From positions 4,533 to 68,532 of the forward strand of contig CALCJW010000192.1 in the NCBI GenBank assembly GCA_937967235.1: DNA of 64,000 nucleotides, in the 5' to 3' direction. A model generated the notes under the pieces. It made no database searches. It was not told the DNA's origin and saw nothing but the letters and a program-made list of their open reading frames with translations. The number at the start of each line of letters is the position of its first letter. The stretch's first letter is position 1. This stretch comes from an uncultured Clostridia bacterium (lineage in GTDB: Bacteria; Bacillota; Clostridia; Oscillospirales; Oscillospiraceae). This document shows, piece by piece, positions 3,691-62,652 of this stretch. The position numbers and the translations under genes are program-made.

Positions 3691-3709
3691 TCAATTATTC
3701 GAGCTCGAT
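3691..3709. repeat. prophage attachment-site core, distal copy (attR-like), tcaattattcgagctcgat
   Basis: A 19-bp exact copy of the sequence at 62634..62652, which overlaps the guaA stop codon and last codons. Confidence 0.7.
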
Positions 3710-3965
3710 TGAAGCAGGGCATTTCCTGCTCTTTTTGGAGTTTTTGAGGTGCGGTTTCACGTTGTTATTTCCTCGTATTCTTCCTGTTCTCCCTCTTTGA
3801 CGGGTGCCGTAATGCCATGTGAATGCCACAGCTCAAAAAAGAGGCCCCAGCGTCGAGGCCCTGCGCTCAGCGTAAGGTTTCGGACGTCGGGGCCTCTTTG
3901 TCCAAGAGAGCGTTTCCTGCATTTCATTTTACCGCAGCAGGAAGCAGCTGTCAAGCGGGAAGCAT

Positions 3966-4517
3966 TTAGTCCCAGATGTGCTCGTCAAGATACGCTTTCC
4001 ATTCAGCGTCTGCATCTGCAAGGGCCTTCTCGTAGTCATCACCATTGATGATGCGCTCCAGAGCCTTCTTGTATGCGCTTGCCTGAGCATAATTGGCAGC
4101 AAGCGAACCGGCTTCAGCCTTGCGGTATGCTGCGGCGCGGGGGTATTTCTTCCGCAGGGCTTCAATGCCTTCAGGGGTAACAGAAGGCTTGCTCGGAAAA
4201 ATTGCATCACCACTTTCAATGGCCTGGTTGAACGCCTCTCGGTAGTTCAGCAGAGCTTCGTTCGCTGCCTCCAGCTCTTTCAGGCCCTCGATCGCCTCGA
4301 TCTTCGCCTGCCGTTCCCGCGCCTTCTGTGCGTCCTCTTCGGCCTGCTTTTCCTTTTTGAGCAGGTACTCCATGATCTCCGGTTTGTGAGCCTTCGCGTA
4401 TGCAGAGTACGCCGGGACGTCCTCTTTGCTGACGCTCCGCGTTCCGATCTTGTCGCCCTGACGGAAGGTGTGAGTGACCTCCACGAAATGCTCGACGCAC
4501 ACATTGTCAAATTTCAT
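3966..4517 (-). CDS. hypothetical protein (prophage end, moron-like)
   Basis: AGGAGG lies 7 nt upstream of the ATG of MKFDNVCVEHF... Lys/Glu-rich C-terminal region with no recognised domain. Confidence 0.5.
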   Translation of the reverse strand: MKFDNVCVEHFVEVTHTFRQGDKIGTRSVSKEDVPAYSAYAKAHKPEIMEYLLKKEKQAEEDAQKARERQAKIEAIEGLKELEAANEALLNYREAFNQAIESGDAIFPSKPSVTPEGIEALRKKYPRAAAYRKAEAGSLAANYAQASAYKKALERIINGDDYEKALADADAEWKAYLDEHIWD

Positions 4518-4679
4518 AGTATTTCCTCCTGGCATTTGATGTGGTTAGTGTATTGTTCCTAACAATATTATACTCCTGTATATGCCGGGTGTCAATTTAT
4601 TTTTCTCTTTTGAGCGGATTTTATCTTGACAGGCGAGACAAAATCAATTATACTAGGATGTGGAAAAGGGGGACTCCAG

Positions 4680-4904
4680 ATGTCAGCAGCGAAAATCATC
4701 AAGCAGATCATGGTCGAAACAGGAACGACCGTCCGAGAGCTGGCTGGAAAGCTCGGATGCACGCCGCGGAGCTTGAGCAACAGGCTTTACCGGGACACAT
4801 TCACATATTCGGACTACATCAAAATTGTTTCCGCTTTGGGCTGTACGGTACAGACCGTCACTGGCACAGGGAAGGTCTTCCAGAACGAAAATGAACCAGA
4901 TTGA
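4680..4904 (+). CDS. small helix-turn-helix DNA-binding protein
   Basis: MSAAKIIKQIMVETGTTVRELAGKLGCTPRSLSNRLYRD has an HTH signature. The start was placed at the internal ATG with AAAGGGGGA upstream. Confidence 0.5.
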   Translation: MSAAKIIKQIMVETGTTVRELAGKLGCTPRSLSNRLYRDTFTYSDYIKIVSALGCTVQTVTGTGKVFQNENEPD

Positions 4905-4921
4905 AGGAAGGATGCTGAGTC

Positions 4922-5302
4922 ATGAAAAAATTTCTTTCCACGCTTGCTGTACTTTTGGCAGCCTGCTTGCTGCTGTGCTCGTGCGGCAAAAAGACGAAAT
5001 GCAGCGGTCAGGCTGTTTCCGTTGGCAAGAGCGCGATCGAAGCCGCGGACGACTACCTGGACAACAACCAGTCGGCACACGACGCTCTGGACAGGCTGGA
5101 CGAGCTCAAAGAGAAGATGGAGTATGTGGACTCTGAGGACGCATCAAAGCCCACCCACAGTGCAGACTACTCCGTTTCCTCCGATCTAGTTCTGCTGTCC
5201 CACGAGATCACGTTTGACAGCATCGACCACGATCGGTACGACAAAATTTTGGAGAAGCGGAACGACATAGCAAAAACCATCGGCGAGAAAAAGCGCAAAT
5301 GA
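4922..5302 (+). CDS. putative lipoprotein
   Basis: MKKFLSTLAVLLAACLLLCSCGKK has a signal peptide with a lipobox. Confidence 0.55.
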   Translation: MKKFLSTLAVLLAACLLLCSCGKKTKCSGQAVSVGKSAIEAADDYLDNNQSAHDALDRLDELKEKMEYVDSEDASKPTHSADYSVSSDLVLLSHEITFDSIDHDRYDKILEKRNDIAKTIGEKKRK

Positions 5303-5405
5303 GATCAGACCGGCAGGCTTTCAACGGCCCGCCGGTTTTTGCTTTCAGCACTCAAATTCCAAGTCCACAGTTGAAAGCTATGTGCAAAATGTGGAAAACA
5401 AAATA

Positions 5406-5453
5406 AGGCCCTCCCCAGACCATTGCGATCAGGGAGGGCCTTGCTTATTTTTG
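5406..5453 (+). terminator. rho-independent terminator
   Basis: AGGCCCTCCC...GGGAGGGCCT stem followed by TTGCTTATTTTTG. Confidence 0.5.
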
Positions 5454-5647
5454 CTTATTCGCGGTTTACGCTGACTTTTTCGCTGAATTTTTGTAAATCG
5501 CGCGAATAACGCGCACCGCGCGTTTTCCAGCAGCAGACCATTTTCGTTGCGCCACGAAAATGGTTATCCACGGGTTGCTACCTCACGGGGTACTTCTTCA
5601 TCCGTCATATCGAAGCTCCTTCATGTTTTCGTGGCGTCACGCAGACA

Positions 5648-6046
5648 TTACTTGCTGACGCCCTTGTTGCGGCTGATCTGGGCCTGGATGCGGGTCGTCA
5701 GATAGCCCACGGTATCGCCGCCGCTGATCTCCTTGATGTAGTCCAGAGCATCTTTGCTCAGGCTCTTAATCGCTACCGAGATCGCACGGCTCAACGCCTG
5801 GGCCTGCTCCTCCTCTTTGAACGTGCCGGCCTTTTTCAGATCGTCAACGTAGGACTGGTTCATGGCTGCCACGGCGTCGGCCACCGCGTTTGCGATCTCC
5901 TGGACGAGGCGACAGGTCACTTCGCTTTTGGCGTTCTCCTCAGCAGATGCGCCGATCGAGGCCGCGGCCTTCTTCACGCAGGCAGTTGCAATGGGCAGAC
6001 AGACCATCAGGACGGCCCAAGAGATTTCACGCAGAATGTTGTTCAT
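5648..6046 (-). CDS. hypothetical membrane-associated protein downstream of the lysis genes
   Basis: 132-aa ORF with an N-terminal hydrophobic segment. Confidence 0.45.
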   Translation of the reverse strand: MNNILREISWAVLMVCLPIATACVKKAAASIGASAEENAKSEVTCRLVQEIANAVADAVAAMNQSYVDDLKKAGTFKEEEQAQALSRAISVAIKSLSKDALDYIKEISGGDTVGYLTTRIQAQISRNKGVSK

Positions 6047-6064
6047 AGTCGTTCTCCTCTCAAA

Positions 6065-6730
6065 TCACAGTTTTGCCAGGTACTTATCCGCACCCGACAG
6101 TTTTTTCCAGGAAGCAGGGCCGCAGATGCCATCTGCAACAAGCCCGTTCTGCTTCTGGGCAGACAAAAGGGCCTGCGTGGTGGCAGGCCCGAAGTTTCCA
6201 TCCTCTTTGATTTTGAGCAGCTTTTGCAGCAGGATGATCGCCGATCTGTTCGCTGCGCCGACGCTCCCCTGCCGGATGGTGGGCAGGATGAAGCTATTGT
6301 ACGTCGTCGAGGGATAGACACCCGGAGAGGTACAGAGCCAGGTTGCCTTGCCTGCGCGGGTGTCCGCGTGGCACATAGCAGCCTCGGAATGCCAGTAGAT
6401 GCCGATGCCGCCGAAGCCCACCGCCTGCGCGATGATGCCCAGCGCGACCGGATTCACGACCCGATCGAGGGTGCGCCAGTCGGCAGCAAACCCATAGAGG
6501 TGCTTGCTGCGCGAGCTGCCGTGTACCTTGGCGTTGTGCGTGATGCAGCGATACCCGGACGTGACCTTCAACTTGACGCCCAGCACATCCCGGATGCTCT
6601 GGAGCTTGTCTACGAGCTCCAGATCGATCATCTGGGCGTCGCACTTCTTGCACTGGCATTCAAATTCATCCCTGGTAAAATTCTTCGTCAGCGCGGTTTT
6701 GTCCCCGCGCTTATAGGTTACGATGCTCAT
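6065..6730 (-). CDS. endolysin: peptidase M15 (D-Ala-D-Ala carboxypeptidase-like, M15_3) plus C-terminal peptidoglycan-binding domain
   Basis: DEFECQCKKC...TSGYRCITHNAKVHGSSRSKHLYGFAAD is zinc-peptidase M15-like. The C-terminal LQKLLKIKEDGNFGPATTQALLSAQKQNGLVADGICGP is PG_binding_1-like. Confidence 0.85.
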   Translation of the reverse strand: MSIVTYKRGDKTALTKNFTRDEFECQCKKCDAQMIDLELVDKLQSIRDVLGVKLKVTSGYRCITHNAKVHGSSRSKHLYGFAADWRTLDRVVNPVALGIIAQAVGFGGIGIYWHSEAAMCHADTRAGKATWLCTSPGVYPSTTYNSFILPTIRQGSVGAANRSAIILLQKLLKIKEDGNFGPATTQALLSAQKQNGLVADGICGPASWKKLSGADKYLAKL

Positions 6731-6748
6731 TGAAAACAGCTCCTTAAT

Positions 6749-7189
6749 TCATTCCTCCATGTTGTCCTGTTCGGACTTCTGTTTCAGGATTTCGATAGCC
6801 CCGGTCAGTGCCTTGGGGATTGGCACCCCCATCAGGCCAGCATTTTCGATGATGGACAGCGTCTCGTTTGCGATGAATGCGATCACGGTAGCATCTCGGA
6901 TAAAATTAGACCCCATCACCGTGTCGAGGTGGCAGGCCACCAGCACGATCAGCAGGGTTACACCTTTGCGGCACAACCCTTTCCACCCGGCGCGGGATTC
7001 CAGTGCGCCGTCTTTGCTCTTCGGGCTGGCGTGGAAAACCCCGGCAACCACAAGCCCCGTGATGTAATCGACTGCCATGAACAGGATCAGCGTCGAAAGT
7101 GCCGCATCCCATCCGCCGAATTGACTTGCAATCAGACTGCCGATTACTCCAACCATGGTGCAAACTCCATTCTTCATTACATCACCCAT
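6749..7189 (-). CDS. phage holin (holin_4_1 / toxin-secretion-lysis family)
   Basis: 146 aa with multiple TM segments: MKNGVCTMVGVIGSLIASQFGGWDAALSTLILFMAVDYITG. Confidence 0.75.
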   Translation of the reverse strand: MGDVMKNGVCTMVGVIGSLIASQFGGWDAALSTLILFMAVDYITGLVVAGVFHASPKSKDGALESRAGWKGLCRKGVTLLIVLVACHLDTVMGSNFIRDATVIAFIANETLSIIENAGLMGVPIPKALTGAIEILKQKSEQDNMEE

Positions 7190-7412
7190 CTGCTTTTTAC
7201 CTCCCGGACGTGGAAGTTCTTGCTCAGGGCCTTGTTCCCGTCCTTCGCATACGAATAGGCTTTAATTGCCATTGCTACCATCTCCCTTCATGCCCAGATC
7301 AGCACCGCACCCGCGCATGGCACAGTCCACCATCAGCACCCCGAACTCGGCCCGTTCGGTGCTCATGTTTTCGCCCTGCGCTTCAAGGCGGGTCAGCAGC
7401 CGCTCGACCAGC

Positions 7413-7583
7413 TCAGGCCACGTCATAGTCGTCACCGGTGATGCGCTTGTAATCCTCGGCGGTGATCTCGCCCTTGTTTACGCGCTCGGCCAGAACTTTC
7501 TTCACGCCAACGCGGCGGGATGCGGGCATCTCTGCCCAAGTCTTAGTGCCTGCAATCAGGCGGTTTGCCCAGATAATGTTCAT
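7413..7583 (-). CDS. XkdX-like small phage protein
   Basis: Manually translated 56-aa MNIIWANRLIAGTKTWAEMPASRRVGVKKVLAERVNKGEITAEDYKRITGDDYDVA with an AAGGAGG RBS. Below the ORF-track size cutoff. Confidence 0.55.
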   Translation of the reverse strand: MNIIWANRLIAGTKTWAEMPASRRVGVKKVLAERVNKGEITAEDYKRITGDDYDVA

Positions 7584-7595
7584 GGTGATACCTCC

Positions 7596-7799
7596 TTATT
7601 CCTTGTTCAGCGCTGCGTCCAGCTCACACAGCGCGGTTTCGATGTCGGTCAAGCGCTTCTCGTTGGCCGCGTCCTGTTCGCACAGGGCATCTTCCATTTC
7701 AGCCACACGGTCGGGCAACTGTTCGTGCTCCTGCTGCTTCTTGGCTGCGGCTTCCTTCTCCTGCCGGGTGGGCAGATTGTCCTTTTTCCACTGAATCAT
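7596..7799 (-). CDS. small coiled-coil phage protein (XkdW position)
   Basis: 67-aa Glu/Lys/Ala-rich ORF. Confidence 0.4.
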   Translation of the reverse strand: MIQWKKDNLPTRQEKEAAAKKQQEHEQLPDRVAEMEDALCEQDAANEKRLTDIETALCELDAALNKE

Positions 7800-7813
7800 G
7801 GTGACTGTCCTCC

Positions 7814-9073
7814 TTACTGGAATGCGCCGGAGACGGCTTCGATGTAGCCGCCCTCGCCGGATTCGCCGCGCTCCACGCTGACGCGGAAATTGAATGCAGC
7901 GCCAGCCGTGGCGGTCTTATTCTCAAAGACGATGTTTACGCCTTTTTTTACCTCGGTCGTGGCATCCTGCCAGACCGGGGAGCTGTCGAGTGCGTTGTTG
8001 GTCACTTCGGCTTTGAACTTCGCATCATCGGGGATGGAGCCGGTCACCTGAAGCACGGCAACGGTAATGTCGCCCTCAACGGCCAACGGTTCAGCCAGCG
8101 TCACGCTTGCGGCGTGGACGGCCTTGGTAAAGGTCGCGGACGTGCTGACGGTTTCCTTGCCGTCGCTCACCTCAACGGTGATGGTGTGGTTGCCGTTCAG
8201 GATTTTCTGGAATCCGGCAGCGCTGGCCGTCTGCTCAAAGGTCAGGGCCGTGCCGCTGGCAACGCCGGTGCGGGTCTTGGTGGTCTTGCCGTCCAGCTTT
8301 TCGGTGACGGTCAAGGTGTCGCCGTCGGCATCCCTGACGGTGTACTTCCACGCAAAGGCCGCGTTCTTCTGCCCCAGAGCTGCGCCGTCCGTGCTGACGG
8401 TAGGTGCAGTGTTGACACTGACCGTGCCGTCGTCAGAGACCACGAGTGTAGAGGGAAGAATGAAAGCGGGGCGAACACCATAGGAGCCGCTACACCAGTA
8501 GCTGCCGTTGGAGCCAACCGAACTGACGTACCAGACGTTGCCGGTGCTGCCGGTGTACGGAGAGCGCAGCCACCAGACGGCAGCGGAGCTGCCATTGTAT
8601 GCAATACGCTTGCTGTTACCGCCGGAGCTGTTGCCAAAGTATGCCAGCCTCACGCCGTCCTTCGGGAAATAGCCGTTGTCGCTGGTCGTCCAGCCAACCT
8701 CATAACCAGACAGCAGGAACACTTTGGTGCTCAGGCCGTTGGAGCCGGTGGCAAGGCTGCCACCGGAACCAGTGCCGTTCTGATACGGAATCTTGACCTG
8801 CTTGATAGCGTTGCGAATGTCCGCGTCAATCAGGTTGAAGAACGTACCGTTCAGGTATGTGTGGATGCTGGAATCCTTGTAGGAGTTATTGTTGCCGAAC
8901 GTGGACGTTGTGTAGATGTCCTTCATCAGCAGCCACGTTCCGGCGCAACTCGAATCATAGGTGCTGGTATTCGGATTGCCCTGCTGCACGACAATAAAAT
9001 CTTTGGACGCGCCGTTGACCTTGATTTTGACAATGCTGCCAACGGCTTTCGTGCCCAGTTTTACGTTTGCCAT
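7814..9073 (-). CDS. DGR target protein: tail fibre / receptor-binding protein with a lectin-like variable region and C-terminal Ig-like extension
   Basis: True start MANVKLGT has AAGGAGGT upstream; the ORF-track N-terminal extension overlaps the RT gene. Residues ~163-203 (SAAVWWLRSPYTGSTGNVWYVSSVGSNGSYWCSGSYGVRPA) coincide with the VR. The WLRSP...GVRPA pattern is typical of CLec-fold DGR variable regions. Confidence 0.8.
   Translation of the reverse strand: MANVKLGTKAVGSIVKIKVNGASKDFIVVQQGNPNTSTYDSSCAGTWLLMKDIYTTSTFGNNNSYKDSSIHTYLNGTFFNLIDADIRNAIKQVKIPYQNGTGSGGSLATGSNGLSTKVFLLSGYEVGWTTSDNGYFPKDGVRLAYFGNSSGGNSKRIAYNGSSAAVWWLRSPYTGSTGNVWYVSSVGSNGSYWCSGSYGVRPAFILPSTLVVSDDGTVSVNTAPTVSTDGAALGQKNAAFAWKYTVRDADGDTLTVTEKLDGKTTKTRTGVASGTALTFEQTASAAGFQKILNGNHTITVEVSDGKETVSTSATFTKAVHAASVTLAEPLAVEGDITVAVLQVTGSIPDDAKFKAEVTNNALDSSPVWQDATTEVKKGVNIVFENKTATAGAAFNFRVSVERGESGEGGYIEAVSGAFQ
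8465..8585 (-). repeat. DGR variable region (VR)
   Basis: 121 bp aligning to the TR at 10493..10613 with 16 mismatches. Fifteen of them are at positions where the TR coding strand has A. Confidence 0.85.
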
Positions 9074-9093
9074 TGTTACCTCCTTGTTTTCGT

Positions 9094-10323
9094 TCAGGCC
9101 CACGGCATGATCTCCGCAGGCCGCGTGTTCTGCGATACAGAGAGGGACAGGGCTTTGTGCTGCTTCTTGTAGATGCAGCGGCATTGCCGCGCCCGCCGTC
9201 TGTCACGCGCGAGTTTGTTCGAGTTGATTTTTCGATGGATAGGGATTTTACAGTCAAGCAATTTTTCGAGCCGGTCAGCGTACTTGCGGCGTAAAGAGTA
9301 GGTTTCACCATGGGCAGCATGGGCATCCCACGCATCAAAGCTCCGCAGGATTTCCTGCTTGGTCACTTCGCCTGCGGGGTATGCCGTCTCCCAATACTTG
9401 ATCTTGTTCTTCATCCGCTTAGAGCTATCCCGGCGCAGCTTTTGGATGACCGCGCCGGTGTCGGTCAGGTAGCTATGGAATCCCAGAAAATCAATACCGT
9501 TCCGCAGCGGGAAAATGGCGGTTTTCTGGTTCAGCTCAAGGCCGTAACTGTCCATGAGCGCCCGAACATCCCGGAGAATGCACTGCAATTTCTTCTTGTC
9601 CGAACAGATGATATAGAAATCATCCATGTATCGGCCATAGTATTTGATGCGGTACTTCTCTTTGATGATGTGGTCGAACTCATCCAAAAACATCAGCGCA
9701 AAGAGCTGGCTCGTCTGGTAGCCCAGCGGCAAGCCGTCCTCCATCACGTCGATGTAGATGCAAAGCAGCTCATAGACACGCGGGTCAACGCCGCGCTTGT
9801 CCAGCACGGCTTTGAGCTTGCGTTTTAGCTTCCGGTGGTCGATGCTGGCGAAGAAATGCCGCACGTCGCCTTTCAGCACCCAGCCGTCCGCGCCGTGGCC
9901 CTCACGGCGGTAATAGTCCACCATGTGAGTTTTCAGGCGCATCAGACCGTCGTCTGTGCCTTTGCCGGTCTGGCTTGCGTGGCTGTCCCGGATAAAGCTC
10001 TTTGTCAGAGCATCATACAGGATGTTATCGACCAGCGCGTGCAGCACCACCTTGTCCACAAACGCCGGGGCGTGTACCATGCGGCGCTTCGGCTCGTAGA
10101 CGGCAAAGACCTCAAACTTACTTGGCACATAGCATATCTGCTGCCGGATATCGCCGCCCGGCTGGCGTACATCGCGCACGGCCAGCTTGCGGGACAGCTT
10201 TTCCGTGCAGGCCAGCGCCTGCGCTTCGTACTCGATTGTTTTGCTTTTACTGTGCTTTCCCTTCCGGGCTTCAAGGTAGGCTTTGTAAAGTACCTCAAAG
10301 CTGCACAGTTCTTCGTATGTCAA
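9094..10323 (-). CDS. DGR reverse transcriptase
   Basis: 409-aa protein containing RYMDDFYIICSD, the YMDD RT active site, and finger/palm motifs. It lies between the TR and the target gene. Confidence 0.9.
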   Translation of the reverse strand: MTYEELCSFEVLYKAYLEARKGKHSKSKTIEYEAQALACTEKLSRKLAVRDVRQPGGDIRQQICYVPSKFEVFAVYEPKRRMVHAPAFVDKVVLHALVDNILYDALTKSFIRDSHASQTGKGTDDGLMRLKTHMVDYYRREGHGADGWVLKGDVRHFFASIDHRKLKRKLKAVLDKRGVDPRVYELLCIYIDVMEDGLPLGYQTSQLFALMFLDEFDHIIKEKYRIKYYGRYMDDFYIICSDKKKLQCILRDVRALMDSYGLELNQKTAIFPLRNGIDFLGFHSYLTDTGAVIQKLRRDSSKRMKNKIKYWETAYPAGEVTKQEILRSFDAWDAHAAHGETYSLRRKYADRLEKLLDCKIPIHRKINSNKLARDRRRARQCRCIYKKQHKALSLSVSQNTRPAEIMPWA

Positions 10324-10492
10324 AATGACCCTCCGCTGGTTCGCGTTACGGTAGTGGGCTGCATCCGGCAGGGATGGCCCGCCTCAGCGGGATGTATTTA
10401 TCACTTGCCTGCATCGGCAAGCGACGGGATATAGCCTCCTTTGATGGGCGCACTACTTTCAGCCGGGCTTACTCGTTTCACGGTTCCATCAG

Positions 10493-10613
10493 AGCGGGGC
10501 GAACACCATAGGAGTTGCTGCACCAGTTGTTGTTGTTGGAGCCATCCGAATTGACGTTCCAGACGTTGTTGGTGTTGTTGGTGTTCGGAGAGCGCAGCCA
10601 CCAGACGGCAGCG
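10493..10613 (-). repeat. DGR template repeat (TR)
   Basis: Non-coding 121-bp partner of the VR. It is rich in AAC triplets on the coding strand (plus-strand gttgttgtt). Confidence 0.85.
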
Positions 10614-10646
10614 TCAGAAAATAAGCTATACCCCTATGCAAAGCGG

Positions 10647-11249
10647 TCAGCCGCTTGCTTTTTCTTCTTCCGGGTCAGGCGGTGCGAGGGCGGCCCTCAG
10701 GGCTTTTACAAGCATGTAAAGCCGTTTCTTTTCTTCCGCCTGCCGGAGGGACTCGGCACGTTCGCGTTCCGACGTCAGCCACTTCATAGCCGGGTATTTC
10801 ACGTCCGTTACCTTTTTCGTCCAGATTCCGGATTTCTTCACGCTGATAATGCCGTCTTCTGTGCAAAGTTGCAGATATTGCAGCATCAAAGAGCAGCCAT
10901 CAATGACGTCACCGATCTTCTCAAGGCGCTTGTCATAGTCGGTCTGGAAATTGACGTTGTTTGCTGCGTAGGCATCCAGCAGGATTTGCCGGGCAGTCAT
11001 GCGAATGCCCTCTCCATAAAGCCGGTAGGTGCTTTTGGTAAAGCCTTCCCGGTTTCTCGTATCGAGGGCATGAACGGCAGTTTCGCACACTCTCTGAATG
11101 TCCTTGACATCTTCAAGGGCCGCCGCTTTTTGAAAGACCGCCCGCGCATCGCTCCGGCTTATATCGTCGGACACGGTGCGCGTTGCCCGCAGTGTGTAGC
11201 GCAGGAGCTCTTTTGCATTACGCCCAACTTTGAACGGTTGTTCAGCCAT
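10647..11249 (-). CDS. basic ~200-aa protein in the Avd position of the DGR (candidate accessory variability determinant, not a canonical Avd)
   Basis: Lies immediately upstream of the TR on the same strand. The start MAEQPFKV overlaps the upstream stop as TGATG. Arg/Lys-rich. No recognisable Avd four-helix-bundle motif. Confidence 0.45.
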   Translation of the reverse strand: MAEQPFKVGRNAKELLRYTLRATRTVSDDISRSDARAVFQKAAALEDVKDIQRVCETAVHALDTRNREGFTKSTYRLYGEGIRMTARQILLDAYAANNVNFQTDYDKRLEKIGDVIDGCSLMLQYLQLCTEDGIISVKKSGIWTKKVTDVKYPAMKWLTSERERAESLRQAEEKKRLYMLVKALRAALAPPDPEEEKASG

Positions 11250-12085: not shown

Positions 12086-12105
12086 AGAGCTTACCTCCTC
12101 ATGTC

Positions 12106-12975: not shown

Positions 12976-12993
12976 AGTAGTGTCCTCCTAAAA

Positions 12994-53847: not shown

Positions 53848-53899
53848 ATTTGCTCCTTTCTCTTGACAAAAGAGCCTGGGCGTGATAATATGACATCGG

Positions 53900-54403: not shown

Positions 54404-54445
54404 GCTGCTGTCCCTCTCTTTCTGGTATTATTTTGGCAGAGGGAA

Positions 54446-55351: not shown

Positions 55352-55364
55352 GATCTTCACCTCC

Positions 55365-55688: not shown

Positions 55689-55702
55689 GTTGAGTCCTCC
55701 TC

Positions 55703-55954
55703 TCATTCATCAGCTCCGAGATCGTGGAGCTTCCAGCCTGTGAACACCAGGGCGGCAGCCGCCAGAACGACGTTGCCTGCGCCGGTTGTATGGATGCTCG
55801 CACTCTGGGCAATCATAATACCCAGGTACAGCAGCACTGCCGCGAGAAATGCCTGCATCAGCAGATGGGGCCATACAGCCCGCTTCTTGGCCTTCCGCTT
55901 CGGGCGGGGTGCCGCTTCCTGCTTGACGCTCAGGGTGAAACTTGTGCTCTCCAT
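55703..55954 (-). CDS. small membrane protein
   Basis: 83 aa with two hydrophobic segments. Confidence 0.4.
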   Translation of the reverse strand: MESTSFTLSVKQEAAPRPKRKAKKRAVWPHLLMQAFLAAVLLYLGIMIAQSASIHTTGAGNVVLAAAALVFTGWKLHDLGADE

Positions 55955-55966
55955 CGTGTTACCTCC

Positions 55967-56194
55967 TCATGCCCGGCTCTTCTGCCGGGTGTCCATATCC
56001 AGGCCCAGCCGCTCGTTGAAGTACCGCTTGCTGACGCGGCCTTCAAACGTCATCTTGCCTTGTGCCTCCAGCTCCTTGTTCATCTGCTTGATGATCTTGT
56101 AGCTCTTGCTCTGGGAAAAGCCCGTGATCCTCATGATGTCGTCCGAGAAATAGAACAGGTCGCGGGCGGTGTTGATCTTCGCCTTCGCTGCCAC
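55967..56194 (-). CDS. HTH DNA-binding protein (excisionase/Cro-like)
   Basis: GTG start after GGAGGAG: VAAKAKINTARDLFYFSDDIMRITGFSQSKSYKIIKQ. Confidence 0.45.
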   Translation of the reverse strand: MAAKAKINTARDLFYFSDDIMRITGFSQSKSYKIIKQMNKELEAQGKMTFEGRVSKRYFNERLGLDMDTRQKSRA

Positions 56195-56196
56195 AA

Positions 56197-56409
56197 TTAC
56201 TCCTCCTTCCGGTAGTTCTGCATGAACTCCCGAACCACGGGAATGAGCTGGTGCCCAGCACAGCGGCCCGTGGTGGTTTCCACCAGCGTGGTGTACTTGA
56301 CGCCTGCGCGCTCGGCCAGCTCCTTCACGGTCATGCCGGTCTGCGCGGTAAAGACGCGCACCTCGATGCCGAAGTCTGTCTTCGGTTTTGTGCGATTCGC
56401 AGTTTTCAT
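56197..56409 (-). CDS. Cro/CI-type HTH regulator
   Basis: RVFTAQTGMTVKELAERAGVKYTTLVE. Confidence 0.55.
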   Translation of the reverse strand: MKTANRTKPKTDFGIEVRVFTAQTGMTVKELAERAGVKYTTLVETTTGRCAGHQLIPVVREFMQNYRKEE

Positions 56410-56493
56410 TGTTTTTCTGCCTCCTTCGTACCTTAAAAATAAGGCTTATTTCTTGTGTTTTGCTTCCCGGTGCGCTATACTGATACCGGGTGT

Positions 56494-57210
56494 TTACCGG
56501 CACGACGCCAGCTGAGCGTATTCCGGCCTGCCCTCCAGCCTGGAGTTCGGGTCAAACTTGAGGCCGTCCCGGTAGCCCTTCTGTCTAGCTCCCAAGGCGT
56601 CCATGTCAACCTCGTTCCTGCCGATCGCCCTTGGCTTGCCCAGGCCGTCCGCCTCCTCGACGACGGCCTGGGGTGTCACCATGACGAGGCCCCATTCCTG
56701 GTGCTCCGCCTTCTGAGCCTTGAACGCATCCTGCAGGCCCTCGCAAAAGCCCCAGCCGTAGGCGTTCACCGCCTTGCGGTAGGTTCCGCGATCGTCCCAA
56801 GGGTTCCGCTTGATCTCGCGCTTGCATGTCGAAGCAATGCAGTCGTAGGCGTAGAGGAAAATCCTCTTGCAGATCTCGAAGTCGTCCTCCAGGCCGATGA
56901 AGCCGATGGTCGCCGTCTTGTAGCCCTTGCGCTTCCGATTGATTGCGCGGCAACAGTAGTTGTCGGCTATCACCGCCGAGAGGGAGGCTGCCCAGGGGTT
57001 CGTCATGGCTGTACACTGGATGTCGGTGAAGTCCTTGACGACCTTCTGGTTCTTCTGCTTCTGGCACTCCTCCGGGGTGAGCTTGTTCTTTGCCATCAGC
57101 TCGCGGGCCTTCAGGAGCGCGGCCTTGGCCTCCGCCTCGTTGGGGCTCTCTGCCAGGGCCAGCAGCTTTGCAATCTTGTCTTTGATGTCTGCCATGATCT
57201 TTACCTCCAT
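56494..57210 (-). CDS. DUF2786-domain protein
   Basis: IKDKIAKLLALAESPNEAEAKAALLKARELMAKNKL is the DUF2786 N-terminal hallmark. Confidence 0.55.
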   Translation of the reverse strand: MEVKIMADIKDKIAKLLALAESPNEAEAKAALLKARELMAKNKLTPEECQKQKNQKVVKDFTDIQCTAMTNPWAASLSAVIADNYCCRAINRKRKGYKTATIGFIGLEDDFEICKRIFLYAYDCIASTCKREIKRNPWDDRGTYRKAVNAYGWGFCEGLQDAFKAQKAEHQEWGLVMVTPQAVVEEADGLGKPRAIGRNEVDMDALGARQKGYRDGLKFDPNSRLEGRPEYAQLASCR

Positions 57211-57464
57211 TCGGGAACATAGTCGCCGTAGCCGCGGGTGATGTAAGCATCCAGAACCGCGACGGCCTCCGGGTTGAGGATGAACTTGGAACGATCGGTC
57301 AGGAGCTCCTTCAACTGGGAGATCGTGGCCCCCGGGTAGGTTTCGTGTACCAGCACCAGAAAATCGTTGGTCGCAGTCGTGGAACCGGCGATCGGGCGAC
57401 TCCCGCGCTTTGACTTTGGCGCGAAGAACACGACATCCTTGTGGCCATTCGGGTACTTAGGCAT
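57201..57464 (-). CDS. hypothetical protein
   Basis: 87-aa ORF. Confidence 0.4.
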   Translation of the reverse strand: MPKYPNGHKDVVFFAPKSKRGSRPIAGSTTATNDFLVLVHETYPGATISQLKELLTDRSKFILNPEAVAVLDAYITRGYGDYVPEWR

Positions 57465-57915
57465 TGTGCTCCACCTCCTCCGCAGCCGGAATCTTGCACC
57501 GCTCCAGATCGAGCGGGGTCATGCAGTACGGGTTAACGCGCTTCCCTGTCCGCAGGACGACCGGGTCGTAGACCAGGCGGCGTTCGCTGTCCACCATGCA
57601 AACCAGGATGTCTTGATCGGGCTTCACGATCGGAGCGTTGGTGTACTCCAGCATCCGCTCGTAATCGCTGTAACTGAGGTTCGCTTTCAGAGCGACGCCT
57701 CCAGCGTCGAACGTCAGGACGTTCTCGTCCTTGAATGTACGGAGATAGCCGCGGACGAAATACGGCTCGCCGGTCGTAAACGTGCCGTTGTCGATTCTGA
57801 CCGGCGCACCCACGACGCCGTATTCATCGGTCTGGCTCAGGTCGATGCGGACGACGGGGTACTGGTTGAAGTTGATCGCCGCGGCGATCTTGGTTCTGTT
57901 GGAAAGCACCTTCAT
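57457..57915 (-). CDS. hypothetical protein
   Basis: 152-aa ORF. Confidence 0.4.
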   Translation of the reverse strand: MKVLSNRTKIAAAINFNQYPVVRIDLSQTDEYGVVGAPVRIDNGTFTTGEPYFVRGYLRTFKDENVLTFDAGGVALKANLSYSDYERMLEYTNAPIVKPDQDILVCMVDSERRLVYDPVVLRTGKRVNPYCMTPLDLERCKIPAAEEVEHNA

Positions 57916-57930
57916 GGTTTAGACCTCCTG

Positions 57931-58590
57931 TCATTCGATGACGATCTGATAGTCGAGAGCATCCGACATCGGCAGACCGGGCTCACCGTCCCGGTCGTTG
58001 CTAGATGCAGAATAGAGCTTGTCGTGCCGTTCCCGCGGCATCGAGCCGGGTTCTGTGTACTTCCAGACCGTTCCCAGTTCATCAACGAACACCTCACGGC
58101 TGAGGTCGTCCGTACCGATGAAGTGCAGGCTCCTCACGTTGCCGGAGAGTCGAGCGGCCACAGCCAGGAGGTGAGCCTCGGTTTTCAGTTCTCGCTTGAC
58201 GTCCTGGCAGTCCTCGCCGAAATGCAGCTTGTACCACTCGATCGTCACAGACAGGTCGTCAGCCGCTTTGCGGAACCACCCGGCAACGAAGCTCTGGTTG
58301 ATGTCGGTGCGAACCTCAATCTGGGCGTGCTCGCTGTTCCAGAGGTTGGCCCTGGCTGCCTTCTCGCGGTCGTTGACGTAAGCTTTCAGGGGCCAGAAGC
58401 AGGTCGAATACTTCGTGCTGGAGAGCTTGCCGGACTTGCCGATCATGTGCAGGCAGATGTCTCCGCCATTCCAACCGGGGTCGCCGGGGATGTGCTCGAC
58501 GAAGTAGAGGGCGTTGTCGTGCTTGAAGTACGCGCCGGTGATCTCCACGATGTCCCCGGCCTTGATCTCCACGTTGTTCTTATCGGTCAT
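57931..58590 (-). CDS. hypothetical protein
   Basis: 219-aa ORF preceded by the conserved GGAGATAACTAACC-ATG leader. Confidence 0.45.
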   Translation of the reverse strand: MTDKNNVEIKAGDIVEITGAYFKHDNALYFVEHIPGDPGWNGGDICLHMIGKSGKLSSTKYSTCFWPLKAYVNDREKAARANLWNSEHAQIEVRTDINQSFVAGWFRKAADDLSVTIEWYKLHFGEDCQDVKRELKTEAHLLAVAARLSGNVRSLHFIGTDDLSREVFVDELGTVWKYTEPGSMPRERHDKLYSASSNDRDGEPGLPMSDALDYQIVIE

Positions 58591-58659
58591 GGTTAGTTAT
58601 CTCCTCTCAGGTGCTTGCGGGTTTGCAGCCGGTCGGCTGCTCTTGTTGGCTCCCACGAC

Positions 58660-58857
58660 CTACCCTGGCTGGCTTGCCAGGTGGTTTCGGCCTTCGCTAG
58701 ACTGAGTCCAGTAGTCGAAATCCTTCAGAACCTTCTCGCGGTTCTTCGGGGTGTCCGGCAGATTATAGCCGGAACGGTTGCCTCCGACGAACAGCTCCCC
58801 GCTGTCGTTGATGCCGCAGGCAATACCCAGTACCTTGTCTTCCTTGAAGATCGTCAT
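58660..58857 (-). CDS. small hypothetical protein
   Basis: 65-aa ORF. Confidence 0.35.
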   Translation of the reverse strand: MTIFKEDKVLGIACGINDSGELFVGGNRSGYNLPDTPKNREKVLKDFDYWTQSSEGRNHLASQPG

Positions 58858-58870
58858 GGCTGTTACCTCC

Positions 58871-59305
58871 TCACTTCATCAGGATGTCGTACAGGCGGGC
58901 TTTCAGGTGGACGTTTTCGTTCTCCAGGGCCATGACACGGCTCGCGGAGCTCTCGACGCCCTCCTCCAGTTCCTTGATCCTGTCGGCCTGCATCTTGATG
59001 ATGCTGTTCAGGTTGGCGATCTGCTCGTCCCTGCCGTCGATGTTCTTCTGCTTCTGGGCAACGGCCTCGGACAGTGCTTGCAAGCTGTCCGCCTGCTTGC
59101 GGTTCTCGACCAGGAGGCTGGCGGCCTCCTTCTGTGCGTCCTCGGCCCTCGCCTTCATGCTGCACATGAAGTCGTTGCCGATGTTGTCCTCTGCCATATC
59201 AAGGCACCCGTCGAAGGCAGCTGCAATGTAGCTGTCCTGGCCCAGTCCCTTGATGATCTCGGCGATCTTGTCGAGTGCTTCGCGCTCCTGCTGCTTCGTT
59301 GCCAT
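58871..59305 (-). CDS. coiled-coil protein
   Basis: 144-aa Glu/Ala/Lys-rich ORF. Confidence 0.45.
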   Translation of the reverse strand: MATKQQEREALDKIAEIIKGLGQDSYIAAAFDGCLDMAEDNIGNDFMCSMKARAEDAQKEAASLLVENRKQADSLQALSEAVAQKQKNIDGRDEQIANLNSIIKMQADRIKELEEGVESSASRVMALENENVHLKARLYDILMK

Positions 59306-59307
59306 GT

Positions 59308-59542
59308 TCAGTCCTCCTTGTTCTGTGCGTTCTGCTCGATCTGGAGCAGTTCATTGTAAATCCGGTTGGCTTCCTCGCTGGTCAGGTTGTACTGCTCGAT
59401 CAGGTCGGGAAGATCGCGGGCCCGCCAGCCGCCCTCGTACAGGGGGGGGCGCGGAATACTGGGTGTCGTACTCCTCCTGGCCGCCGCAGCGGAGATCATC
59501 GCGCCAGCTCTCGTAATCGGCCTCCGTCATGATCATCATCAT
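59308..59542 (-). pseudogene. small early gene split by a frameshift at a G8 (coding-strand C8) tract
   Basis: MMMIMTEADYESWRDDLRCGGQEEYDTQYSAPPP is in one frame, then PLYEGGWRARDLPDLIEQYNLTSEEANRIYNELLQIEQNAQNKED is in the -1 frame. The junction is at the homopolymer at 59452..59459. Confidence 0.4.
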
Positions 59543-59545
59543 GGC

Positions 59546-59725
59546 TTAGCCCTCCTTCTCGACACCCAGCAGCTCCAGGCTGCCATACACGCAGCCCTCG
59601 GCGATCTCACGGGCCTTCTTGCGAGCGGACGTGATGGACACGGCCTCGATCTTGCGGGTGGTCTGGTAGCCGCCGCTGCTCAGCTGGGGGTTGTGGCGGT
59701 AGTAGGTGGCGATGTAGGTCTTCAT
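59546..59725 (-). CDS. small hypothetical protein (59 aa)
   Basis: Manually translated MKTYIATYYRHNPQLSSGGYQTTRKIEAVSITSARKKAREIAEGCVYGSLELLGVEKEG with GAGGAGG RBS. Confidence 0.35.
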   Translation of the reverse strand: MKTYIATYYRHNPQLSSGGYQTTRKIEAVSITSARKKAREIAEGCVYGSLELLGVEKEG

Positions 59726-59737
59726 GGTTTTTCCTCC

Positions 59738-60076
59738 TCAGTAGCAAGCATGTGCGGTGTTGATGATCGTGTAGGCCATCATCTTGATTGCCTCTTCGAT
59801 TGGCGTGTTCAGGCTCGGAAGGCCCACGCACTCGACCATCTCGACATTGAGGTTGTCGCCGTGCTCGTCCTTCGCGTAGATCAGGCAGCCGTCCTCGTCT
59901 TCTACGAGCTCGATCGTGAAGCACGGCTTTTGATCTCCGTACTTCAGATAGCTCCAGAAGATGCTGGCCTTGGTCTTGTTGATGGCCTTGATCGACCACT
60001 TCCAGTTGGGGTCATTCTGGTTGGCCTCGGAAACCAGCCTGCGAATCAGGCCCTTGTGCTCGCGCAGATCGAACAT
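59738..60076 (-). CDS. hypothetical protein
   Basis: 112-aa ORF. Confidence 0.45.
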   Translation of the reverse strand: MFDLREHKGLIRRLVSEANQNDPNWKWSIKAINKTKASIFWSYLKYGDQKPCFTIELVEDEDGCLIYAKDEHGDNLNVEMVECVGLPSLNTPIEEAIKMMAYTIINTAHACY

Positions 60077-60079
60077 AGT

Positions 60080-60223
60080 TCAACCCTCCTTGACAAGCTG
60101 CACCATCTTGAAGATGCGAGCCCACTGCTCTTTGTTCATGCACCCCCCGTTGTTCACGAACTCCTTAGCGAAGCTGATCTCCTGCTCCATCTCGGCCTTG
60201 CTCATCTCATTCAGGTTTTTCAT
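60080..60223 (-). CDS. first small ORF of the leftward early operon (47 aa)
   Basis: MKNLNEMSKAEMEQEISFAKEFVNNGGCMNKEQWARIFKMVQLVKEG preceded by the conserved leader. Confidence 0.3.
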   Translation of the reverse strand: MKNLNEMSKAEMEQEISFAKEFVNNGGCMNKEQWARIFKMVQLVKEG

Positions 60224-60389
60224 GGTTAGTTATCCTTTCTCTTGTTCCTTAATTCTTTGGCTTATCTTCTATAAGTATTATACCACATTTGGATAACAAA
60301 TCAACATTTTTTAGTGTTTTCAAACAGAAGAAAACGCGAAAAATATTCCCAAATTTTTAGTTAGTCTGTATATCATACGGAGGGAAGAT
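60224..60389. promoter_or_regulatory. AT-rich divergent promoter/operator region between the CI-like repressor and the early operon
   Basis: About 70% AT in an otherwise ~58% GC prophage; flanked by divergent starts. Confidence 0.5.
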
Positions 60390-60788
60390 ATGACTATCTG
60401 TGAACGGCTCTTTGAAGAGCTAAAGCTCCGCGGGTTTACCGCGTACAGCCTGTCAAAAAGCATCGGAGTCAGCACTGCCACAATATCGAATTGGAAGCAG
60501 CGAAACACCGACCCGCCATCCAAGTGCATAATCCCAATTTGTGAATTTCTGGGATGTTCGATCGAATATTTGTTGACAGGTGAGGACACCGGGGCCCCTG
60601 TGGTCATAAAAAAAGAGCCCGTCCCCGGAATATCCGAGAACGGGCGCGAAATGCTGGCCTTGTATGAAAAGCTGTCAGAACGCGATCAGCTGCTCTTGCT
60701 GGGCCGTCTGCAAGAAATGGCCTCCCCCATGCTGGGCGACTCCAGGGAAAAGAACCAGAAGGACGACGCACGCAGCGCGGCAGGCTGA
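60390..60788 (+). CDS. CI-like XRE-family repressor
   Basis: N-terminal HTH LKLRGFTAYSLSKSIGVSTATISNWKQ. Divergent from the early operon. Confidence 0.7.
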   Translation: MTICERLFEELKLRGFTAYSLSKSIGVSTATISNWKQRNTDPPSKCIIPICEFLGCSIEYLLTGEDTGAPVVIKKEPVPGISENGREMLALYEKLSERDQLLLLGRLQEMASPMLGDSREKNQKDDARSAAG

Positions 60789-60891
60789 TCTATTTTGACT
60801 TCCAGACCGGGAAAATCCTGGAGCCGGAATGTTGAAAACTCGGTGAAAAACCTGTTTTATTTGCAGACCGCCGAAAGCCTGAAATAAAAAT

Positions 60892-61009
60892 AGGGGGCAA
60901 AAATTGCCCCTTATCTTGAGAATAGGGGGCAAAATCTGCCCCCTATTTGCCCATAAAGGGGGCAAAAATTGCCCCTTATCTTGAAAAATAGGGGGCAAAA
61001 TCTGCCCCC
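60892..61009. repeat. two ~54-bp direct repeats, each containing two GC stem-loops (GGGGCAAAAATTGCCCC and AGGGGGCAAAATCTGCCCCCT)
   Basis: Read directly at 60892..60945 and 60957..61009. Located between the repressor gene and the int-proximal genes. Confidence 0.5.
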
Positions 61010-61123
61010 ATAAATAGACGTTATATTATATAAGACGTTTAGTAAGACTATGTTGTTATAGTTATTTACTTACTTTCACACACAATTATTTTTTATTTTT
61101 GCGGACGGGGTGAAGTTTTCAAC

Positions 61124-61384
61124 ATGACGGGCTATATTCGCTGTCGCTCGTGCTTCGAGCTGTTCAACTGTGCCGACCTTGTGTCGGGCCTCTGCCCCGC
61201 TTGTGCGAAAATCAGAGCCGATCGGCTGTCTGATCTCCAGCGTGCATACCAGGCCGCCGTTGACGCTGGAGAGCCTGGAGCCTCGGAGCAGATCGCCGAT
61301 CTGATACGGGCATACCAGAGATCAGAGGGCGTCCGGCTGCGTACGAAGCGGGCCGAAAACCCGAATCCGATAAAACCGGCATAG
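61124..61384 (+). CDS. small zinc-ribbon protein
   Basis: CRSCFELFNCADLVSGLCPAC; preceded by an AT-rich region. Confidence 0.4.
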   Translation: MTGYIRCRSCFELFNCADLVSGLCPACAKIRADRLSDLQRAYQAAVDAGEPGASEQIADLIRAYQRSEGVRLRTKRAENPNPIKPA

Positions 61385-61475
61385 GAGGGCTTACAGCACG
61401 TTTTCGGTTCTGGAGGTAAAGAGAGATTCCGAAGCTACAAAACGTCGCTCAGGGCCCGCTCTGCGGCCTTGTGGC

Positions 61476-62561
61476 ATGATTCTGGCAGAATACAGGGAGG
61501 TGAGCGTTATTCCTGCGTACAAAGACAAGGAACGGGGTACATGGTACGCCTCGTTTTACTACACCGATTGGCAGGGCCACCGAAAGCTGAAAAAGAAACG
61601 GGGCTTTGCTCGGCAGAAGGACGCGAAGGCGTTCGAGGACGAATTTTTGAAGACCAGGGCCCAGAGCTGCGACATGACGTTCGGCTCGATGGTGGAGCTG
61701 TACCTGGACGACATGGAGCACAGGTTGAAGGCGAACACGATGCGCAACAAGCGGTATCTGTACAAAGCCCGCATCTTACCCTTCTTCCAGGACTTGAAGA
61801 TCAATGACATCACACCGGCCCACGTCCGCAAGTGGCAGAGCAATCTGCTCGCCGAGGGCGTCGCTCCCACCTATGCGAAGACGATCAACAACCAGCTATC
61901 CGCCGTGTTCAACTACGCCTGCCAGTATTACGGCCTTGCCCGGAACCCCGCGAAGGTGGCAGGCAGCATCGGCAAAGAGAACGCGGATGAAATGAAGTTC
62001 TGGACGGTGGACGAGTTCACGAAGGTTGTCGAGAACGTGCCGAAGCTCCCAGGCAGAACCGGCCTGTCCGTTCTGTTCTGGACGGGCCTGCGCATCGGTG
62101 AGCTGCTGGCCCTGACTCCGGCAGACATCAACCTGGAGGACTGCACGCTCTCGGTCAACAAGAGCTTCCAGACGATCGACGGCGAAGAGGTCGTGACAGA
62201 GCCGAAGACGCCGAAGAGCCGCCGTGTGCTGCCCATCCCGCCGAAGCTGGCCGATATGCTCAGGGTGTATCTGAACGCCCTGTACAAGCCTGACCCTGCC
62301 GATCGGCTGTTTCCCTTCACCAAGCACTACTTCCGCCAGCAGATGCAGAAGGGATGCAAAGCGGCCGGCATCGAGCCCATCCGCCTGCACGATCTCCGAC
62401 ACTCTCACGCTGCCCTGCTTATCCACCTGGGGACTCCGATCTTGATGGTGAGCGAGAGGCTGGGCCATGAGGACGTCGAAACGACGCTGCGGACATACGG
62501 GCATTTGTACCCGTCGGCGACGTCGGATGCGGTGAAAAAACTGAATGATTTGATGCGGTAA
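61476..62561 (+). CDS. int: tyrosine recombinase / phage integrase
   Basis: C-terminal RLHDLRHSHAALLIHLGTPILMVSERLGHEDVETTLRTYGHLY carries the R...HxxR...Y catalytic signature. The exact start codon is uncertain; the RBS is nearer an internal GTG. Confidence 0.85.
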   Translation: MILAEYREVSVIPAYKDKERGTWYASFYYTDWQGHRKLKKKRGFARQKDAKAFEDEFLKTRAQSCDMTFGSMVELYLDDMEHRLKANTMRNKRYLYKARILPFFQDLKINDITPAHVRKWQSNLLAEGVAPTYAKTINNQLSAVFNYACQYYGLARNPAKVAGSIGKENADEMKFWTVDEFTKVVENVPKLPGRTGLSVLFWTGLRIGELLALTPADINLEDCTLSVNKSFQTIDGEEVVTEPKTPKSRRVLPIPPKLADMLRVYLNALYKPDPADRLFPFTKHYFRQQMQKGCKAAGIEPIRLHDLRHSHAALLIHLGTPILMVSERLGHEDVETTLRTYGHLYPSATSDAVKKLNDLMR

Positions 62562-62589
62562 TGCCAAAATAATGCCACAGGGCAAAAAG

Positions 62590-62631
62590 AAAAGCCGAAA
62601 ACCCGGATGATTCCTAGGGTTTTCGGCTTTT
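62590..62631. terminator. bidirectional rho-independent terminator between int and guaA
   Basis: AAAAGCCGAAAACCC...GGGTTTTCGGCTTTT. Confidence 0.6.
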
Positions 62632-62633
62632 TG

Positions 62634-62652
62634 TCAATTATTCGAGCTCGAT
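62634..62652. repeat. prophage attachment-site core, int-proximal copy (attL-like), overlapping the guaA stop codon
   Basis: 19-bp exact match to 3691..3709; encodes ...IELE* of guaA. Confidence 0.7.

Follow-up and report, generated by a model that had tools for sequence, protein, structure and literature searches.

Temperate phages of the classical lambda type can integrate where a conserved gene ends, for example at the attachment (att) sites in tRNA genes, and restore the interrupted 3' end with phage DNA. The locus described here raises the question of whether a prophage adjoining guaA, the gene for GMP synthase, has entered its host in this manner, and where exactly it begins and ends. 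It lies in a stretch of 64,000 nt from an uncultured Clostridia bacterium (GenBank assembly GCA_937967235.1, contig CALCJW010000192.1, positions 4,533 to 68,532), which we call the window and whose numbering is used throughout; loci that were compared with it carry L numbers. An earlier note on the window had proposed that a 19-bp direct repeat at the 3' end of guaA marks the ends of a prophage of about 59 kb and that the original guaA terminator now lies at its far end. With high confidence, positions 3691–62652 can be regarded as a complete temperate tailed phage integrated at the guaA end of a Faecalibacterium chromosome.

The 19-mer TCAATTATTCGAGCTCGAT is present in the window as two exact copies, 3691–3709 and 62634–62652, each on the plus strand, and no further copy with up to two mismatches occurs in the window. 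On the minus strand the right-hand copy reads ATC GAG CTC GAA TAA followed by TTGA, that is, the last four codons and the stop codon of guaA plus 4 nt. This attR core forms the functional end of the gene (stop codon 62638–62640), with the P' arm of the phage to its left and the body of guaA to its right. The left-hand copy, the attL core, is an orphaned remnant of the gene end (four codons, stop and 4 nt) between host DNA on the left and the P arm of the phage on the right. Identity between the copies ends at 19 bp on both sides and the surrounding sequences are unrelated. The repeat is exact and unique, and it is situated beside the integrase gene as the earlier note described. The idea that it is a coincidence, due to chance or driven by codons, and that the real prophage ends lie elsewhere has next to no probability left: although the core partly codes for the conserved C-terminus of GuaA and the palindrome inside it might recur randomly, 100 dinucleotide-preserving shuffles of the window gave zero matches to TCAATTATTCGAGCTCGAT. 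The coincidence is refuted by two kinds of contig, those of the empty site, which break precisely at the repeat with a 19-nt overlap, and those in which the phage ends are joined through one core.

The empty site (attB) was searched for in metagenome contigs with a degenerate pattern that ran from guaA codons through the core into the start of the left flank, an exact 34-mer being required. Six contigs (L081–L086) carry the left flank with its hairpin, a single core and guaA as contiguous sequence, which supplies the comparison with prophage-free relatives that had been proposed: guaA abuts the left-flank hairpin through one core in all six. L081 is 100% identical to the reconstructed attB across 2,170 nt, and L082, from a contig of 74 kb, is 99.76% identical across 5,057 nt. 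Window positions 1–3709 map to 486–4197 of L082 and positions 62634–64000 to 4179–5545. These megablast pieces overlap by exactly 19 nt, and the insertion therefore measures 58,943 bp counting one core, in agreement with the clean prophage of about 59 kb that had been predicted. The attL junction is set both by the empty-site contigs and by the attP contigs discussed below, the predicted att boundaries proved right to the base, and no evidence contradicting them was found. A pattern anchored on the terminator stem had no match in GTDB species representatives, which carry other sequences 3' of guaA. The guaA gene itself (62638..64000, minus strand) has its 3' 1.36 kb inside the window and runs off the end; it matches Pfam GMP_synt_C (E=7e-41) and GATase, and the encoded fragment is 94–99% identical to the products of Faecalibacterium guaA loci (L001–L022). 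Judged by sequence, the host chromosome is that of a Faecalibacterium.

The integrase gene (61476..62561, plus strand) ends 72 nt from the right-hand core. Its product matches PF00589 (E=1e-19), PF14659 and PF14657 (Arm-DNA-bind_4, E=2.5e-10), possesses a tyrosine recombinase catalytic domain with the active-site motifs, and shares the conserved motifs LRIGE, HDLRHSH, LGHE and YGHLY with the integrase of Clostridium perfringens phage phi3626. Which start codon is used is uncertain, as alignment to phi3626 Int sets in only at residue 12. Two pairs of arm-type repeats accompany the gene. The P' pair TAATGCCAAAATAATGCCAC (62559..62578, plus strand) has an 11-nt period, and its first repeat opens with the integrase stop codon; the P pair TAATGCCATGTGAATGCCAC (3810..3829, plus strand) lies within the opposite end of the phage, at a distance of 101 nt from the core. 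In the window the motif TAATGCCA-n3-TRATGCCAC is found at these two places only, against a chance expectation of 0. An arm-binding domain and arm-type repeats on both sides of the core, as putative binding sites, are thus present, and binding of these sites would be the task of the N-terminal domain of the integrase.

The layout is shared with integrase relatives in IMG/VR (47–76% identity), in which there are two repeats with an 11-nt period, the first overlapping the int stop codon, and then a hairpin and a core resembling a guaA end. At the core site these relatives carry TTATTCCCACTCGAT or TTATTCGAGCTCGA; in most of them the core is TTATTCCCACTCGAT, corresponding to IEWE-stop, and guaA follows in nine. 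The arm repeat varies along with the integrase (TAATGCC, TAGAGCC, TAGTGCC, TAGTACG). As a separate observation, two of these loci, L091 and L098, have almost identical P' arms but different cores, TTATTCCCACTCGAC (IEWE) versus TTATTCGAGCTCGAC (IELE), which differ essentially as CCCACTC versus CGAGCTC. A third locus, L092, has the same arm and is integrated beside a Faecalibacterium-like guaA; the integrases of all three are 73–76% identical to that of the window. The pair L091 and L098 looks like a core switch inside one phage lineage.

The attP form was reconstructed by joining the window up to 62652 with the window from 3710 onwards. A look-up of the exact integrase protein, which a public assembly collection lists in 1,877 blocks, later located attP. 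Among ten places of the integrase that were listed, guaA lies 3' of int in seven (attR form). In the phage-length contigs L145 (58,529 nt) and L141 (54,951 nt), the genes that come after int are those of the other prophage end, for the lipoprotein and for lysis (attP form). Colinearity of L145 with the reconstruction extends over 6,715 nt at 97.1% identity, and the contig reads as predicted across the junction, ggctttttg-TCAATTATTCGAGCTCGAT-tgaagcaggg; L141 likewise spans it. The PCR across attP that the earlier note had suggested was in this way carried out in silico. In the reconstruction the second arm pair is located at +194/+205 from the int stop codon, in the attP-form relatives it is found at +197/208 or +198/209, and it is absent from the attR-form loci; this match in spacing therefore gives independent support for the attP join. 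A duplicated identical core in the window, a single-core attB in relatives and a single-core attP have accordingly all been found.

One further listed place, L147 (ENA ERZ27242462 k141_51820, positions 4083–4500), has an identical integrase and P' arm with a core variant, TTAATTATTCGAGCTCGAT. Neither guaA nor the usual P arm follows 3' of this core, where unrelated minus-strand genes are found with no second pair of arm repeats. Integration at a secondary site or in tandem might account for this locus, as might a recombinant phage.

Lysogens with the same phage occur in other hosts. The attR form is found in L088–L090, L142–L144, L146 and L148–L150, of which the IMG/VR loci L088–L090 carry the same phage at 92–97% identity adjoining guaA. 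Seven attL junctions from IMG/VR (L133–L139) show an identical phage P arm on at least four different host flanks. With phages of 92–99% identity at guaA in several host backgrounds, and with the attP-form contigs, the element looks mobile at present.

Several results weigh against reading the insertion as one copy of a complete and mobile phage. The exact attP string had no match in IMG/VR; L145 and L141 are relatives of 94–97% identity and not exact copies of the window's phage; no excisionase or Xis-like family was found among the family matches of the window proteins; and when 24 kb of the prophage were compared with the phage collection by megablast, no match was returned, hence no close cultured relative in it. 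The best matches of the capsid and terminase proteins are to uncultured gut viruses only (55–68% identity, reaching 62–68% at most). The element could accordingly be a fixed, defective prophage whose att sites are fossil scars that no longer support excision, a possibility to which the missing excisionase gene and the uncertain integrase start codon would lend themselves. We consider it improbable: the two cores are intact and identical, the integrase keeps the motifs of its catalytic region, long intact open reading frames (ORFs) run across all modules, the close relatives sit in several host contexts and occur also as the attP form, and the exact integrase protein is widely distributed in the assembly collection.

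The reading as a complete and mobile phage leads to the question of where within the 19 bp the strands are exchanged. One IMG/VR contig of 61.8 kb, a single lysogen, has both of its ends among the loci compared (L088 and L133), with TCAATTATTCAAGCTCGAT at attR and CAGATTACTCAAGCTCGAT at attL. These ends have only positions 9–19 in common (TCAAGCTCGAT), for which the counterpart in the window is TCGAGCTCGAT, the last 11 bp of the core (3699..3709 and 62642–62652, plus strand); the 11-mer contains a 10-bp palindrome, TCGAGCTCGA. Because L088 and L133 share only those bases, strand exchange is placed within this 11-bp segment and inside guaA, and the functional crossover region would be at most 11 bp long and lie within the Ile-Glu-Leu-Glu codons. 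With a crossover inside the IELE codons, the third base of the last Glu codon, the stop codon and the guaA terminator at attR would be supplied by the phage. In L088/L133, attR indeed has GAA TAA from the phage and the host's own GAG TAA is left at attL, which at the level of sequence confirms directly that the gene end is rebuilt by the phage with the predicted GuaA protein unchanged.

That all 19 bp, and not a sub-segment of 11 bp or less, form a functional core needed by the integrase has a little less in its favour than the defective prophage, and we regard it as unlikely. The identity in the host of the window does extend over 19 bp, and the attP contig L145 has all 19. In other hosts, however, attB shares only TTA, then has one mismatch and then the 11-bp segment (TCGAGCTCGAT or TCAAGCTCGAT), and one and the same contig has host bases at positions 1–3 and 8 in attL and phage bases in attR. 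The 19-bp identity is specific to the host lineage of the window, because its empty site already has all 19 bases. Two A/G polymorphisms (position 11 in L088/L133, position 17 in L141/L146) were used in an attempt to narrow the crossover within the shorter segment; no lysogen with differing end alleles was found.

The hairpins around the att sites fit a gene end of which the terminator has been exchanged. The native intrinsic terminator of guaA, now 59 kb from the gene, is assigned to 3626..3680 on the minus strand, with a stem-loop at about 3635–3680 and a U-run at about 3626–3634. It folds at −31.5 kcal/mol (z = −7.4 versus shuffles) and is followed by GUUUUUUGG; a simple consensus terminator scanner missed it because the loop exceeds 8 nt. 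In 6/6 empty-site contigs this hairpin begins 14 nt past the guaA stop codon. Fold, U-run and position thus agree with the orphaned terminator that the earlier note had placed at 3626..3676. An alternative function as an attenuator or protein-binding site, belonging to the downstream DUF2508-like and SCIFF genes or to the att site, appears very improbable. The hairpin is located upstream of the next minus-strand gene and within a tract of about 1 kb that is 100% identical among otherwise diverged contigs, as such a site might be; yet in the empty site it starts immediately behind guaA with its U-run on the guaA strand, other Faecalibacterium (L002, L006–L009, L013) have different, non-homologous but comparable U-run hairpins at the equivalent place after guaA, and the phage has a replacement hairpin of its own at the equivalent position.

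This phage-borne hairpin, to be set beside the native guaA terminator, is bidirectional (62590..62631), lies between the integrase stop codon and the core, and has a T-run on both strands. Its minus-strand fold has an energy of −25.6 kcal/mol (z = −4.7) and is followed by UUUUCUUUUU, and the hairpin is kept in relatives. It would end plus-strand transcription of int and, as a replacement terminator in the lysogen, that of guaA on the opposite strand; guaA is not stripped of a terminator in the lysogen, since the phage supplies this putative one. A GC-rich stem-loop with a U-run directly after a stop codon, as expected of a rho-independent terminator, is present both at 3626–3680 and at 62590–62631. 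A further hairpin with a T-run (3713..3730, plus strand) adjoins the core on the phage side of attL, and similar hairpins occur at the same place in attP-form relatives. In L138, one of the IMG/VR lysogens, attL is flanked by a guaA terminator of the F. prausnitzii ATCC 27768 type, and the orphaned-terminator configuration therefore recurs.

The mechanism that we propose is as follows. A lambda-type, arm-binding tyrosine integrase would recombine attP with an attB that overlaps the last codons of guaA. In attP, the int stop codon with two arm repeats and a hairpin stands on one side of the core TCAATTATTCGAGCTCGAT; on the other side there is a second hairpin and, about 100 nt further on, another two arm repeats. 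Integration duplicated the core into attL (3691–3709) and attR (62634–62652), so that the guaA of the lysogen would receive the third base of its last Glu codon, its stop codon and its terminator from the phage, with the GuaA product unaltered, and the native terminator (3626–3680) together with the remnant of the gene end would be stranded at attL, 59 kb away. The positions of cleavage, the binding of the arm sites and the function of the terminators are parts that we infer. As in lambda-type systems, there is an arm-binding domain, P and P' arms flank a short duplicated core, and a 3' end is replaced without change of the product; unlike at the att sites of tRNA genes, the target is a protein-coding gene. 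Of the lambda-type accessory factors, an IHF-like protein and Xis, none was identified here.

Among cultured phages, the best matches of the integrase are those of C. difficile phages phiMMP02 and phiCD505 (53%), Bacillus phage phi4J1 (51%) and C. perfringens phage phi3626 (48% over 349 amino acids, E=3e-124, found also by tblastn). For phi3626, Table 1 of PMC3442830 gives guaA as attB, citing Zimmer et al. 2002. The GenBank record of this phage has an attP misc_feature, TTATTCCCACTC, 75 nt past int, which is the reverse complement of GAG TGG GAA TAA (EWE-stop), and TAGTACG repeat pairs are found at the int stop codon and about 100 nt past the core. The phage of the window corresponds to phi3626 in having a homologous int, with attP just 3' of it and a core that mimics the guaA end, as well as a pair of arm repeats with an 11-nt period that starts from the int stop codon, about 55–75 nt before the core, and a second site about 100 nt past it. 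The two differ in that phi3626 is a siphovirus of 33.5 kb, whereas the phage described here has 59 kb, a contractile-tail gene set and a diversity-generating retroelement (DGR), and the host class is different. Where phi3626 has EWE-stop and TAGTACG, the core here encodes IELE-stop, as in Faecalibacterium GuaA, and the arm motif is TAATGCCA; the bidirectional hairpin between int and core is additional.

The 3' end of guaA is also used by elements other than phages. GIsul2 of gamma-proteobacteria has the site GAGTGGGA at this position, with the same C-terminal codons (PMC9376610), and streptococcal integrative and conjugative elements (ICEs) such as ICE_SmiB6_guaA insert at the guaA 3' end as well (PMC4701971). 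Similar to the phage in the window, these elements combine a site-specific tyrosine integrase with the guaA 3' end, direct repeats that contain the exact gene end, and a gene that stays intact; they are genomic islands or conjugative elements rather than phages, and their core sequences and hosts differ. Published phages of Faecalibacterium (Cornuault et al. 2018, PMC5883640), including the DGR-rich prophages Roos, Pioen, Aster and Lelie (PMC11792537), share with the window's phage the host genus, the temperate lifestyle and, in many cases, a DGR. The four induced prophages of PMC11792537 were reported to be integrated in intergenic regions, not in guaA, and no report of guaA integration in Faecalibacterium was found in the literature searched. 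Because phi3626, GIsul2 and the streptococcal ICEs precede it, both the mechanism and the target gene were already known; new here is the particular phage, with its core adapted to the C-terminus of Faecalibacterium GuaA (IELE).

A sequence beginning with TCTGCAAACCC follows guaA in many Faecalibacterium and was considered as a native flank. It was rejected as such, as the ORFs of L012 show that an integrative mobilizable element starts there; a search for a structured RNA in this flank gave no Rfam match. The element in L012 (F. prausnitzii strain 2, positions 7362–12911) begins directly after the guaA stop codon and encodes a helix-turn-helix (HTH) protein, a related arm-binding tyrosine integrase, a NikA-like protein, an AAA_25 protein and a Mob_Pre relaxase, a gene set that looks like that of an integrative mobilizable element. 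It possesses a repeat pair of its own with an 11-nt period, GATACTGCTTTGATACT. The same type of flank is found in L001, L010, L011, L015–L017, L019 and L022, and the attL junctions of lysogens L133, L135, L136 and L139 abut it. In these lysogens the phage and the mobilizable element appear to be in tandem at guaA, and the site would therefore be an integration hotspot.

The body of the prophage (3710..62633; the 58,943 bp given above include one core) has the PHROG and Pfam matches of a myovirus-like temperate phage, and its ORFs for terminase, portal, capsid, tail, lysis, replication and repressor functions are intact. From the att-distal end, the minus strand encodes a primase-like protein, an SbcCD-like protein of 1,275 amino acids and three ParB-like proteins, followed by terminase, portal, protease and capsid, then sheath, a tape measure protein of 1,408 amino acids and baseplate, the DGR and the lysis genes. 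The lysogeny module is on the plus strand and consists of a CI-like repressor (60390..60788; Pfam Phage_CI_repr and PHROG repressor families), an ORF of 86 amino acids (61124–61384) that matches only a PHROG of unknown function, and int. The ParB-like ORFs (521, 227 and 220 amino acids) are consecutive (35970–38863), upstream of the terminase region, with PHROG matches to 'ParB-like partition protein/nuclease' and 'DNA methyltransferase' families. The DGR (7814–10613) has a reverse transcriptase gene (9094–10323, minus strand; phrog_1423, E=3e-121), a template repeat of 126 nt (10488–10613) and a variable repeat (8460–8585) within ORF 7814–9184, which belongs to phrog_10993, a 'Hoc-like' family. 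Template and variable repeat differ at 18 positions, of which 15 have T on the plus strand, i.e. A on the coding strand, the adenine-specific signature of a DGR; the variable repeat lies in the middle of its ORF and not at the C-terminal end.

The lysis cassette (5648..7189, minus strand) comprises a holin (6749–7189), an endolysin (6065–6730) and a holin-like ORF (5648–6046), with matches to phrog_199, phrog_2649/894 and phrog_13712. Beyond this cassette, the earlier note had placed moron genes at 3966..6046, a claim that holds for part of the region. ORF 5648–6046 on the minus strand is not a moron, because it is holin-like (E=1.5e-25 versus a holin PHROG). The best moron candidate is a putative lipoprotein gene (4922..5302, plus strand), whose translation shows a signal peptide and a lipobox-like LAAC/LCSC sequence. 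It is present in every phage copy compared (L133–L139, L141, L145), in other copies has a promoter-like TTTACA-17-TATACT of its own, and is followed by a terminator-like site at 5430–5443; scans of Pfam, PHROG and NCBIfam found no family match for it. The remainder of the region is a variable cassette of 940 bp (3969..4908), with an ORF of 189 amino acids (3966–4535, minus strand; no Pfam, PHROG or NCBIfam match) and a small HTH regulator (4626–4904, plus strand) with weak matches to PHROG repressors. In eight other copies (seven IMG/VR lysogens and L141) it is swapped for about 60 nt with a promoter-like site, and L145 retains it; since those eight copies lack it, the cassette is dispensable. 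Between its two ORFs, back-to-back promoter-like sites with a near-perfect sigma-70 consensus are located at 4567–4654 (TTGACA-17-TATAAT on the minus strand, TTGACA-17-TATACT on the plus strand), an arrangement that resembles a self-contained regulatory switch.

The host DNA to the left of the prophage (1308..3448) is ordinary chromosome with all genes on the strand of guaA: a radical-SAM SCIFF maturase (1308-2771; NCBIfam TIGR03974, 786 bits), a SCIFF ranthipeptide gene (2827-2973; TIGR03973, 82 bits), both above the NCBIfam cut-off, and a DUF2508-like ORF (3101-3448; Pfam). An exact-protein look-up of the maturase had nothing on record. In four of the empty-site contigs (L083–L086), about 0.8–1.5 kb around attB is 100% identical to the window, and the adjoining flanks are only 75–94% identical. 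Within the identical tract (about 2830–3709 plus 62653–62850 in the window) lie the SCIFF peptide gene and the DUF2508-like ORF, followed by the terminator and the core, and the tract reaches a few hundred nucleotides into guaA. Ascertainment bias is likely in view of the exact 34-mer that the contig search required; even so, the sharp edges suggest that the tract arose by recombination with the att site at its centre.

The att sites described here (attL, attR, attB and attP) give base-exact boundaries for a prophage that is very widespread in Faecalibacterium, a key commensal of the human gut, and can be used in genome annotation, in work on prophage induction and in the assignment of virome reads. 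The site-specific integration system could possibly be developed for the genetics of this genus. The mechanism itself is a textbook theme, in which an element integrates into the 3' terminal part of some conserved gene and restores the gene end. As a more tentative proposal, which we think rather doubtful but worth stating, the integration module may belong to a family across clostridial phages that extends from phi3626 to Faecalibacterium phages and integrative mobilizable elements and whose cores track the C-terminal GuaA codons of the host, IEWE-stop mostly and IELE-stop in Faecalibacterium; equally tentative is the separate suggestion that host DNA flanking att is carried by the phage from one strain to another. 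The tract of about 1 kb centred on attB is 100% identical in strains that are otherwise 75–90% identical. If the proposal is true, the core-tracking family would form a natural series for studying how tyrosine integrases are retargeted.

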